A stretch of 64,000 nucleotides of DNA from Escherichia coli. GTDB taxonomy: Bacteria; Pseudomonadota; Gammaproteobacteria; Enterobacterales; Enterobacteriaceae. The notes under the pieces were generated by a model that ran no database searches, was not told the DNA's origin, and saw nothing but the letters and a program-made list of their open reading frames with translations. This document shows, in pieces, positions 57,720 to 61,911 of the stretch; the stretch's first letter is position 1, and the number at the start of each line of letters is the position of its first letter. The stretch is from NCBI RefSeq assembly GCF_003334355.1, contig NZ_QOWP01000023.1. One strand, 5' to 3'. The position numbers and the translations under genes are program-made.

Positions 57720-59384
57720 TTAAAACGTTTCCCAGTTCTCCCCGCTATCTGCCACTGCCATTTTACGCGGCGTAGCTGGCGTCACGTTTTTTACCACAGC
57801 CGATGTTTCACGCTGCTGTTGCTGCTGTTGCTGAATCCGGAACACTGCCACAGCTTCGGTCAGGCGACTGGCCTGCTCTTCCAGCGCGGCGGCGGCAGCG
57901 GCAGATTCTTCCACCAGCGCAGCGTTCTGTTGAGTTACCCGGTCCATCTCAGCAACCGCTAAGCCAACCTGATCGATACCACGGCTCTGCTCATCAGAAG
58001 CAGAAGCAATTTCGCCCATAATGTCCGTCACGCGGGTCACGGCACTGACAATCTCCGCCATTGTTTCCCCTGCGCTTTCGACCAGCGTAGAGCCAACATC
58101 TACTTTCCCCACCGAGTCTTCAATCAGGCTTTTAATTTCACGAGCCGCCTGAGCGCTGCGCTGGGCCAGATTACGCACTTCACCCGCGACCACCGCAAAA
58201 CCGCGCCCTTGCTCACCCGCGCGCGCTGCTTCAACCGCCGCGTTCAAAGCCAGAATATTGGTCTGGAAGGCAATGCCGTCAATTACGCTGATAATATCGG
58301 CGATTTTCTGCGAACTGGTGGAGATATCGCGCATAGTCTGCACCACGTTATCTACCACTTTGCCGCCGCGTTGCGCCGTTTCAGAAGCACTTAACGCCAG
58401 GTGGCTGGCCTGGCGCGCATTTTCGGCGTTCTGTTTCACCGTTGCGGTCAGTTGCTCCATGCTGGCTGCCGTCTCTTCCAGCGAAGCGGCCTGTTGCTCG
58501 GTGCGCGAAGAGAGATCGTTATTGCCGGTAGCGATTTCGCTGGCACCGCTATAGATGGCATTGGCCCCGTTGCGCACATCACCGACGGTACGCATCAGCT
58601 CTCCCTGCATATAGCGCAAACTCTCTGCCAGTTGCCCCATCTCATTAGAGCCATCCACCTCAATCGGTTTCACCAGATCGCCGCCTGCAATATGACGAAT
58701 GCTGTCAATCAGGCGATTCATTGGCGCTACCAACGAGGCTTTAATACCGAACCAGACGGCGAAGATGACTGCCAGTACGACGATCATCACGCCCACCAGA
58801 ATCCACATCGCCTGGCTGTAGGAGGCATTATTATCGCTGACGGCGATATCATAGAGCCGATCGTTTTGCTCCATGTAAGCCACATACTGCTTCTCGAAAC
58901 CGTCCTGATATCCCTGGGTCGGCTGATCAAAGAACTCGTTGATTTTGCCTGCACCTAACAGTTGGATCAGCTCCGCCAGCGCATTGTGATAAATATCGTA
59001 ATTACGTTTGATCTCTGCCGCTGCGGCGGTGCTCTGACGCGGGTCACGCGGCAACGCTTCGTAATCCGCCCAGTTTTTTTCCGCCTGTTTCAGCGAAATA
59101 CTGGCACTCTCCATCAGCTCAGCAACGGTTGAACCGCTACCAATATTATTCTGATCCATCATGTAGCGGATACCCGCGCGGTTGAGGGTGTTACGCGTCT
59201 GCAACAACGCGACCCAGCTGCCATTCAGCGTGGATTGCTGCTGGCGAATAGTTTGTAAAACAGTGAAATTTTCTTTGTCATTCTTTAAGGCATTAAAGAA
59301 CAGACCGCCTGATGTCAGTTGTAAAAGGCCAAAAACGGCCAAAACCAGCAGTAAGCTGGTCACAATTTTGATACGTTTTAACAT
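57720..59384 (-). CDS. tsr: Methyl-accepting chemotaxis protein I (serine chemoreceptor) Tsr
   Basis: 554 aa, [40 protein letters not shown]...; C-terminal NWETF pentapeptide. Confidence 0.95.
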
Positions 59385-59532
59385 GGTTTCTCTTTCCTGT
59401 GGACCGATGCAAGATTTTCGGCCAGGAAAGGAAAAACTTTATGAATATCCCGCGGAGATTACGCCGAGTAATTTTATTCACACTCTGAATTTAAAAAGCC
59501 ATTATTTACATAAATTACTCACAATATAAATA

Positions 59533-59548
59533 TGTGATATGAATCACA
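59533..59548. promoter_or_regulatory. CRP-like binding site in the tsr-btsT intergenic region
   Basis: tgtgatatgaatcaca matches the CRP consensus TGTGA-N6-TCACA. Confidence 0.5.
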
Positions 59549-59760
59549 TATTTATCGTCACTTAAACGACGCCTTTGCCGCTCAACCGCAAAGCTGACCG
59601 CTTACATCCCTAAAATAACCACTCAGTTATTTACCTTACTTTACGCGCGCGTAACTCTGGCAACATCACTACAGGATAGCGGTCAATTTACCTCCTCAAA
59701 CGCAACGCAAACCTAGAACGGCTTCGGCCAACTATTAATCAATACATGCCAGGTTTTACT

Positions 59761-61911
59761 ATGGATACTAAAAAGATATTCAAGCACATACCCTGGGTGA
59801 TTCTCGGAATCATCGGTGCATTCTGCCTCGCGGTAGTTGCATTACGTCGGGGGGAGCACGTCAGCGCCCTGTGGATCGTGGTCGCCTCTGTGTCGGTGTA
59901 TCTGGTGGCGTATCGCTACTACAGTCTGTACATCGCCCAGAAGGTGATGAAACTCGACCCCACGCGCGCGACGCCTGCGGTTATTAACAACGACGGTCTG
60001 AACTACGTTCCGACCAACCGTTACGTGTTGTTTGGTCACCACTTCGCCGCTATCGCCGGTGCTGGTCCGCTGGTGGGTCCGGTTCTCGCCGCGCAGATGG
60101 GCTACCTGCCTGGCACGCTGTGGCTGCTGGCGGGGGTCGTGCTGGCCGGTGCGGTTCAGGACTTTATGGTGCTGTTTATCTCCTCTCGCCGTAATGGCGC
60201 ATCTCTTGGTGAGATGATCAAAGAAGAGATGGGACCAGTACCGGGGACTATCGCGCTGTTTGGCTGTTTCTTAATCATGATCATCATCCTCGCCGTCCTG
60301 GCGCTGATTGTGGTTAAAGCCCTGGCCGAAAGTCCGTGGGGTGTCTTCACCGTTTGCTCAACCGTACCGATTGCGCTGTTTATGGGTATCTACATGCGCT
60401 TTATCCGTCCGGGGCGTGTGGGTGAAGTCTCTGTCATTGGTATCGTGCTGCTGGTTGCCTCTATCTACTTCGGTGGCGTGATTGCTCACGATCCGTACTG
60501 GGGTCCGGCACTGACCTTTAAAGACACCACCATTACCTTCGCGCTGATTGGCTATGCGTTTGTTTCCGCACTGCTGCCGGTGTGGCTGATCCTCGCACCG
60601 CGCGACTATCTGGCAACCTTCCTGAAAATCGGCGTTATCGTCGGCCTGGCGCTGGGTATCGTGGTGCTGAACCCGGAACTGAAAATGCCTGCGATGACCC
60701 AGTACATTGACGGTACTGGCCCGCTGTGGAAAGGCGCTCTGTTCCCGTTCCTGTTCATCACCATCGCCTGTGGTGCGGTATCTGGCTTCCACGCGCTGAT
60801 CTCTTCCGGTACGACGCCGAAACTGCTGGCTAACGAAACCGACGCGCGTTTCATTGGCTACGGCGCAATGCTGATGGAGTCCTTCGTGGCGATTATGGCG
60901 CTGGTTGCTGCGTCCATCATCGAACCGGGTCTTTACTTCGCGATGAATACCCCGCCTGCGGGCCTTGGCATCACCATGCCTAACCTGCATGAAATGGGTG
61001 GCGAGAACGCGCCGATCATCATGGCGCAGCTGAAAGACGTTACCGCACACGCGGCGGCGACCGTCAGCTCCTGGGGCTTCGTGATTTCGCCAGAGCAGAT
61101 CCTGCAAACCGCGAAAGACATTGGTGAGCCTTCTGTCCTGAACCGTGCAGGTGGTGCGCCGACGCTGGCGGTAGGTATCGCTCATGTGTTCCACAAAGTG
61201 CTGCCGATGGCTGACATGGGCTTCTGGTATCACTTCGGTATTCTGTTCGAAGCCCTGTTCATCCTGACCGCGCTGGATGCGGGTACCCGTTCTGGCCGCT
61301 TTATGCTGCAAGACCTGCTGGGTAACTTCATCCCGTTCCTGAAAAAAACCGACTCTCTGGTTGCCGGTATCATCGGTACTGCGGGCTGTGTGGGTCTGTG
61401 GGGCTACCTGCTGTATCAGGGCGTGGTCGATCCGCTGGGCGGCGTTAAGAGCCTGTGGCCGCTGTTCGGTATCTCCAACCAGATGCTGGCAGCCGTAGCG
61501 CTGGTACTGGGCACCGTTGTGCTGATTAAGATGAAGCGCACCCAATACATCTGGGTAACTGTTGTTCCGGCTGTATGGCTGCTTATCTGCACCACCTGGG
61601 CGCTGGGTCTGAAACTGTTCAGCACCAACCCGCAGATGGAAGGCTTCTTCTACATGGCAAGCCAGTACAAAGAGAAGATTGCTAACGGTACTGACCTGAC
61701 GGCGCAGCAGATTGCCAACATGAACCACATCGTTGTGAACAACTACACCAACGCGGGCCTGAGTATTCTGTTCCTGATTGTGGTGTACAGCATCATCTTC
61801 TACGGTTTCAAAACCTGGCTTGCGGTGCGTAACAGCGACAAACGTACTGACAAAGAAACACCGTACGTTCCAATCCCGGAAGGCGGCGTGAAGATCTCTT
61901 CGCACCACTAA
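59761..61911 (+). CDS. btsT: CstA-family pyruvate/H+ symporter BtsT (YjiY)
   Basis: Listed ORF contains MDTKKIFKHIPWVILGIIGAFCLAVVALRRGEH...; start trimmed to 716-aa form. Confidence 0.92.
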   Translation: MDTKKIFKHIPWVILGIIGAFCLAVVALRRGEHVSALWIVVASVSVYLVAYRYYSLYIAQKVMKLDPTRATPAVINNDGLNYVPTNRYVLFGHHFAAIAGAGPLVGPVLAAQMGYLPGTLWLLAGVVLAGAVQDFMVLFISSRRNGASLGEMIKEEMGPVPGTIALFGCFLIMIIILAVLALIVVKALAESPWGVFTVCSTVPIALFMGIYMRFIRPGRVGEVSVIGIVLLVASIYFGGVIAHDPYWGPALTFKDTTITFALIGYAFVSALLPVWLILAPRDYLATFLKIGVIVGLALGIVVLNPELKMPAMTQYIDGTGPLWKGALFPFLFITIACGAVSGFHALISSGTTPKLLANETDARFIGYGAMLMESFVAIMALVAASIIEPGLYFAMNTPPAGLGITMPNLHEMGGENAPIIMAQLKDVTAHAAATVSSWGFVISPEQILQTAKDIGEPSVLNRAGGAPTLAVGIAHVFHKVLPMADMGFWYHFGILFEALFILTALDAGTRSGRFMLQDLLGNFIPFLKKTDSLVAGIIGTAGCVGLWGYLLYQGVVDPLGGVKSLWPLFGISNQMLAAVALVLGTVVLIKMKRTQYIWVTVVPAVWLLICTTWALGLKLFSTNPQMEGFFYMASQYKEKIANGTDLTAQQIANMNHIVVNNYTNAGLSILFLIVVYSIIFYGFKTWLAVRNSDKRTDKETPYVPIPEGGVKISSHH

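Follow-up and report, generated by a model that had tools for sequence, protein, structure and literature searches.

The tsr-btsT intergenic region

We analysed a 64,000-nt stretch of Escherichia coli DNA, here called the window, in which positions 59385-59760 are the exact intergenic spacer between the start codon of tsr and the start codon of btsT (ATG at 59761). To the left lies the coding sequence of the serine chemoreceptor gene tsr (57720..59384, minus strand), a 554-aa open reading frame whose homologue in strain DH1 is annotated tsr. To the right lies btsT (yjiY; 59761..61911, plus strand), the gene for a pyruvate/H+ symporter, which is annotated btsT in a homologous E. coli record and encodes a protein 90-100% identical to orthologues from 80 species. 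The initial annotation of this DNA, made from the sequence alone, had described the spacer as a tsr-btsT divergent region, and the identities of both flanking genes bear this out. Other genera do not share the in-frame ATG that lies upstream of the btsT start, at 59746.

In E. coli strain X14-3 the spacer has the same sequence (100% identity); in K-12 DH1, whose homologous stretch is annotated as tsr (minus strand), btsT, and then yjiX and yjiA, identity is 98.9%. Four spacer positions (59424, ~59470, 59518 and 59593) distinguish the window from DH1; they include a 1-bp indel, a difference within the spacer of the tsr sigma28 promoter, and another between the BtsR repeats R1 and R2 described below. 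The CRP core and the BtsR repeats are untouched by these four differences. The sigma28 (FliA) promoter of tsr occupies 59415..59441 on the minus strand and reads TAAAGTTT-N11-GCCGAAAA, one mismatch away from TAAAGTTT-N11-GCCGATAA, and a genomic SELEX peak of the RpoF holoenzyme has been reported in the yjiY/tsr spacer (PMC5493296).

Three alleles of the DNA upstream of btsT occur in E. coli. The K-12-type allele, to which the window belongs, was found in 2754 genomes and has tsr directly upstream, while the O157-type allele (363 genomes) carries a 180-aa open reading frame between tsr and btsT, and the hpa-type allele (2227 genomes) has the hpa cluster upstream, ending in hpaBC and a terminator. 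Searches of the 180-aa frame against NCBIfam, PADLOC and Pfam returned no credible family.

Expression of btsT is already known to depend on two signals. Work from the Jung laboratory (including PMC10653868) describes btsT/yjiY as the sole target of BtsR, requiring both cAMP-CRP and BtsS/BtsR, and as being repressed by LeuO and controlled post-transcriptionally by CsrA. Loss of crp abolishes activity of the btsT promoter, a delta-crp strain having no PbtsT-lux activity (PMC7730263). The yjiY/btsT promoter of K-12 was described by Kraxenberger et al. in 2012 (J Bacteriol 194:4272), a study cited by PMC5431176, PMC4847170 and PMC10653868. Additionally, the PhyloScan supplement contains a weak CRP site, attcgtgagtacgatcactcaa (q=0.066), upstream of yehU/btsS in the yehV/yehU spacer (PMC1794230). 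Given this weak predicted site, CRP may also act on the sensor and regulator genes.

A near-consensus CRP site upstream of btsT

A near-consensus CRP palindrome, TGTGATATGAATCACA, had been reported at 59533-59548 in the initial annotation, and it is present at exactly that position. It forms the core of a predicted cAMP-CRP site, the 22-mer ATATGTGATATGAATCACATAT (59530..59551, unstranded), with its dyad at 59540.5. The core sits inside a perfect inverted repeat spanning 59526-59555, with 13-nt arms at 59526-59538 and 59543-59555. No other exact TGTGA-N6-TCACA occurs in the 64 kb window, and dinucleotide-preserving shuffles predict 0.07 such matches.

A position-weight-matrix (PWM) scan had been proposed as a check on this site, with the absence of any match counting against it. 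We ran the scan with a matrix trained on the 36 sites labelled 'known' in the PhyloScan supplementary table, the yjiY entry excluded, and a match was clearly returned: the 22-mer at 59530-59551 scored 26.3 bits, the top score in the window. All 36 training sites score lower (11.3-23.6 bits), and among 200 shuffled windows the highest maximum was 20.6 bits, so that none reached 26.3. The next-best matches in the window are the deoP2 CRP sites upstream of deoC, at 33877-33898 (11.7 bits) and 33930-33951 (19.2 bits). Both equal the 'yjjI/deoC' entries of PhyloScan, so the window spans the deo region too; as members of the training set, they serve only as a check that the scan works.

The site has been predicted before. 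PhyloScan (Carmack et al. 2007, PMC1794230) has an entry 'yjiY/tsr 4589059-4589080' giving the 22-mer atatgtgatatgaatcacatat as a CRP site, and the 22-mer in the window is identical to it. The q value of that entry was 0.0025-0.0038 from E. coli alone and ~2e-5 with cross-species evidence, and the region ranked 4th to 7th genome-wide (PMC1794230). The entry was a computational prediction labelled 'novel', and differs from the present analysis in being given without positional or mechanistic analysis. Our literature search for CRP ChIP or SELEX data naming yjiY found nothing usable.

Two other identities for the palindrome were tried and rejected. A terminator scan found no terminator there, and an Rfam scan of 59300-59900 for structured RNA gave just one sub-threshold match, to the Pistol ribozyme (E=0.22; 20.4 bits, where the gathering score is 34.5), which overlaps the palindrome and was treated as chance.

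A direct-repeat array for BtsR

To the right of the CRP box lies an array of octamers related to ACCRCTYA. The initial annotation had pointed to a candidate BtsR half-site, ACCACTCA, at ~59599-59606. The motif is real and its attribution to BtsR/YehT correct; its true position is 59618-59625, ~19 bp further right, and the term half-site understates what is a complete direct-repeat operator of three repeats, possibly four. The motif quoted there is R3 (59618-59625, plus strand), a match to the published motif. It is preceded by R2, ACCGCTTA (59597-59604, plus strand), the first half of the published direct repeat and the octamer that lies close to the coordinates first given, and by R1, GCCGCTCA (59577-59584, plus strand), a conserved octamer that reads ACCGCTCA in the O157-type and hpa-type alleles. 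Together, R2 and R3 (59597-59625) match ACCRCTYA-N13-ACCRCTYA without a mismatch, where 0.00 such matches are expected by chance. The 2012 study of Kraxenberger and colleagues is said, at the level of its abstract, to name two repeats separated by 13 bp.

All three repeats lie within DNA that has been used experimentally. The 57 bases at 59573-59629 equal the 'yjiY YehT binding site' oligonucleotide ('yjiY YehT bs') used in PMC4847170 but for one base, a G for A at 59593, which falls between repeats. By published accounts BtsR binds this fragment, and binding of phosphorylated BtsR is covered by gel-shift and SPR work cited in PMC4847170 and PMC5552118. Conservation of the BtsR motif across gamma-proteobacteria has been described (PMC5552118). 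The initial annotation had considered the control of this region to be known rather than novel, a reading upheld by the PhyloScan 22-mer, the match to the YehT oligonucleotide and the effect of crp loss.

A further octamer, R0 (GTCACTTA, 59557-59564, plus strand), may be a degenerate fourth BtsR repeat. It carries two mismatches and is weakly indicated by comparison across loci: at +23 to +25 from the CRP core, an octamer with at most two mismatches to ACCRCTYA occurs in 30/80 loci, as against 3% at background positions. Across species, R0-like octamers at this place, 24 bp past the beginning of the core, are about ten times as frequent as at background positions.

Predicted core promoter and btsT leader

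Between R3 and the putative -10 element lies a conserved block, ATTTACCTTACTTTACGCGCGCG (59629..59651, plus strand), in which TTTAC occurs twice, 10 bp apart. The block has high information content in an R3-anchored profile and is invariant among the E. coli alleles; it may serve as a weak -35 region. Further right, TGgCAACAT (59658..59666, plus strand; TG, one base and the hexamer CAACAT) would form an extended -10 element. The pattern TG-N-[CT]A-NN-[AT]T is found 39-40 bp after the start of R3 in 66/78 species, and its conserved positions are those important for sigma70 -10 recognition. We infer a btsT transcription start at 59673 (plus strand), 7 nt after the -10 hexamer.

This start agrees with the name of a published btsT reporter, 'PbtsT -212/+88' (PMC10653868), if +88 is the base before the ATG. 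On that reading the reporter would cover 59461-59760, CRP box included. Were the numbering counted from the ATG, its left end would be 59549, just beyond the CRP core, and the box could not account for the effect of crp loss on the reporter.

Counted from the predicted start, the repeats are centred at about -92.5 (R1), -72.5 (R2) and -51.5 (R3), with the CRP dyad at about -132.5. With the start so placed, the CRP centre is far from the classical activating positions and would fit only a co-activator arrangement. A closer promoter, which would place the CRP box at -41.5 or -61.5, was considered and rejected, the 28 bp between the box and R1 being without sequence conservation. A generic promoter scan yielded two weak sigma70-like matches, at 59477-59505 (plus strand) and 59530-59501 (minus strand), where 1.3 were expected, so that the yield does not exceed chance, and both fall in the allele-specific segment.

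The conserved CTGGCA had suggested a sigma54 promoter for btsT, a candidate that we also rejected. The pattern tested was GG-N10-GC (TGGCAC-N5-TTGCA); both the window (TGGCAACATCACTACA) and the other genera lack the -12 GC. Mimicry of the pattern is confined to the O157-type and hpa-type alleles, the window having CTACA in place of TTGCA. Promoters of the sigma54 class need an activator with an ATPase module. By its published description BtsR has only a receiver and a LytTR DNA-binding domain, and thus lacks a sigma54-activating ATPase module. In the O157-type allele, the btsT -10 region (fetched locus L002, 2583-2598, equivalent to window 59658-59673) reads TGGCAGCATCATTGCA, a near-perfect sigma54 -24/-12 look-alike, and this resemblance is probably coincidental.

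The predicted fold of the 5' UTR (59673-59790) is no more stable than that of shuffled sequences (z=+1.15), and we propose no leader structure other than a small hairpin, GGC-UUCG-GCC (59720..59729, plus strand). Compensatory variants of this hairpin are found in other genera; in Salmonella and Kluyvera it reads CAGC-TTCG-GCTG. A short UUCG-type leader hairpin occurs in 42/78 upstream regions and in none of the Enterobacter loci. Some loci (L003, at 2655-2792, and also L004, L006 and L016) carry a ~124-nt ERIC-like dispersed repeat directly after this hairpin, which extends the btsT leader from ~88 to ~211 nt and does not occur in the window. The insert is found in 2065 E. coli genomes, about the same as the 2066 that match the hpa-type query at full length, and the ERIC-like element has a median of eight diverged copies per E. 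coli genome.

Conservation across Enterobacterales

Orthologues of btsT (90-100% protein identity) with upstream DNA were collected from 80 Enterobacterales species, and 78 upstream regions were analysed, namely that of the window and those of the 77 fetched loci for which sufficient upstream DNA was available. In the 600 nt before btsT, the best match to the 10 positions of the CRP core had no mismatch in 29 regions, one in 46 and two in 3. A core with at most one mismatch was therefore present in 75/78 species, compared with 1.7% of shuffles and 0/78 coding-region segments. We used core-mismatch counts as the main measure of conservation, the PWM scores of orthologous boxes (median 16.8 bits) being depressed by the 36-site training set; many boxes whose left half is CGTGA or AGTGA have modest scores.

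The BtsR repeats hold an equally regular position. With offsets counted from the T of TGTGA in the CRP core to the start of each repeat, ACCRCTYA-like octamers with at most one mismatch cluster at +44 (68 loci), +64 (64 loci) and +84/85 (43 and 23 loci). Three repeats stand in register in 77/78 species, and an R1-like octamer begins at +43 to +45 in 77/78 species. The 28 bp that separate the CRP box from R1 keep their length while their sequence diverges. The layout of CRP box, three repeats and extended -10 pattern is thus fixed across the 78 Enterobacterales species.

The CRP box belongs to btsT

Everything to the left of the CRP box varies among the three E. coli alleles, and in each of them a perfect core precedes R2 by exactly 64 bp. 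Even within the core, the central six bases vary by allele (TATGAA, TCATCA and TCTCAA), and the flanks differ as well. The CRP box marks the fixed right-hand edge of a gene-content hotspot. The hotspot lies directly to its left, the variable segment being 59442-59525 in the window as against 1680-2455 in L002 and 1-2455 in L003.

The position of the palindrome exactly at this edge, together with its perfect 13-bp arms and the overlapping sub-threshold Pistol match, raises the question of whether it is a chance or structural feature, such as the scar of an island junction, a hairpin, a terminator or a segment of an RNA, rather than a protein-binding site. Conservation, however, falls on the CRP half-sites (GTGA/TCACA) and not on the arm extensions or the centre. 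The scan gave no terminator-like site, the arms are AT-rich with no T-tract after them, and the Rfam match is far below threshold. The 78-species conservation and the PWM score effectively refute a chance or structural origin, and we regard it as exceedingly improbable.

Upstream neighbours vary just as freely between genera. Salmonella, Citrobacter and Kosakonia have tsr in this position, whereas Kluyvera has a gene for an ABC substrate-binding protein, Lelliottia (L052) a WYL-domain regulator, Pluralibacter gergoviae (L062) an anti-phage dCTP deaminase and Rahnella a lactonase-like gene. In hpa-type E. coli, the CRP box directly follows the hpaC terminator and tsr is no longer adjacent. Because the box is kept whatever the upstream gene, across alleles and genera, we conclude that it travels with btsT.

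These comparisons bear on the proposal that the CRP box is functional but acts on tsr, or on the two divergent genes together, and not only on btsT. The box does lie in a shared divergent spacer in the K-12-type allele, with its dyad about equidistant from the two predicted starts, and PhyloScan labels it 'yjiY/tsr'. However, it is kept in the 2227 hpa-type genomes that have lost tsr as a neighbour, other genera with unrelated upstream genes keep the 44-bp spacing from box to repeat, and tsr has its own sigma28 promoter. Catabolite control of genes with such promoters is usually routed through flhDC. We therefore consider a role at tsr improbable. In the K-12-type allele the dyad at 59540.5 is midway, ~133 bp from the predicted starts of tsr (~59407, as judged by its sigma28 promoter) and btsT (~59673); the other alleles and genera lack such symmetry, and the midpoint position is probably fortuitous.

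Discussion

We have delimited the regulatory elements between tsr and btsT, and found that the CRP and BtsR sites are present, statistically exceptional, and kept in order and spacing across Enterobacterales. We put a probability of about 85% on the reading that the btsT promoter is co-activated by BtsR, bound near a sigma70 promoter, and by distal cAMP-CRP. Under this model, BtsS would sense external pyruvate, and the LytTR-type regulator BtsR (YehT) would bind the ACCRCTYA array R1-R3, whose repeats, spaced by 20-21 bp, would place the array on one helix face. The array would stand just upstream of a sigma70 promoter with a poor -35 and an extended -10 (59658-59666). The near-consensus cAMP-CRP site at about -132.5, a fixed distance from the array, would tie transcription to catabolite de-repression, such that expression of btsT would require both the presence of pyruvate and the lack of better carbon sources. 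Acting from 59530-59551, CRP would be a distal co-activator that bends DNA or helps BtsR or the alpha-CTD of RNA polymerase, rather than a classical class I or class II activator.

The dependence of btsT on crp could also be read as indirect, in which case CRP would act by way of btsSR expression or of pyruvate overflow metabolism, and btsT could do without the palindrome. The weak predicted CRP site upstream of yehU/btsS points this way, as does the unusually large distance of the box from the promoter (about -132.5), and our literature search retrieved no CRP binding, footprint or ChIP data for the box. It is difficult to reconcile a dispensable palindrome with a core that has at most one mismatch and a fixed 44-bp offset in ~75/78 species, while the intervening 28 bp diverge freely, or with a box that ranks so high among CRP matches genome-wide in E. 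coli. A wholly indirect route is thus very improbable in our assessment, and the crp effect could be partly indirect, given the weak predicted site at yehU/btsS.

Within the co-activation model, a bolder version can be formulated, in which the CRP box and a BtsR array of three or four units make up a rigidly spaced module, with repeats at +24(?), +44, +64 and +84/85, and CRP has an architectural role in bending DNA or stabilizing a higher-order BtsR oligomer instead of making the classical contact with RNA polymerase. Repeats three and four, like the spacing, would in that case be determinants of btsT induction that had not been described before. We offer this version tentatively and think it rather doubtful. 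If it were true, these repeats and the invariant spacing would help set the known all-or-none, heterogeneous induction of btsT.

The CRP box and the BtsR operator of btsT were already known, and our additions are modest: a conserved third repeat and an invariant spacing between CRP box and repeats across Enterobacterales. Additionally, the true coordinates of all elements are now fixed and the CRP box is assigned to btsT, not tsr. The region represents the input stage of the BtsS/BtsR pyruvate-sensing circuit, joining catabolite repression and external pyruvate to a high-affinity importer. Its invariant spacing suits a phase-insertion study of how a LytTR regulator and CRP cooperate. Beyond correct annotation, the importance of these findings is small.

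Comparison with known systems

The published K-12 yjiY/btsT promoter is the same locus, and the BtsR motif and the cAMP-CRP dependence seen here are as described for it. As far as that description is conveyed by its abstract and by the papers that cite it, nothing substantive differs; the present data add that the third repeat, R1, and the fixed distance between CRP box and repeats are conserved.

Other promoters combine a specific activator with distal CRP, including uhpT (UhpA, CRP at -103.5), araBAD (AraC, CRP at -93.5), rhaSR (CRP at -111.5) and acs (CRP at -122.5 and -69.5). As in our model of btsT, the specific activator of these systems is bound by the promoter, CRP lies further upstream and both signals are needed. 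In contrast, btsT would use a LytTR-type activator on an array of repeats spaced by 20-21 bp, and its CRP centre, at about -132.5 from the predicted start, would lie further upstream than in most of them.

Among LytTR-type regulators, AgrA (P2/P3), ComE, PlnC/D and VirR have operators made of direct repeats 11-13 bp apart, upstream of a weak -35. Where these usually have a pair, the btsT operator has three repeats and possibly a fourth, and it is coupled to a CRP site. The YpdB operator at yhjX likewise consists of short direct repeats just upstream of a weak -35 (PMC4847170).

The promoter of cstA, which encodes a paralogous pyruvate transporter, is CRP-dependent, with a CRP site ~80 nt before the transcription start, and is under CsrA control (PMC7730263). 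It thus shares with btsT the dependence on CRP, a CRP site unusually far upstream and post-transcriptional control by CsrA. Unlike btsT, cstA lacks control by BtsR and is instead modulated by Fis.
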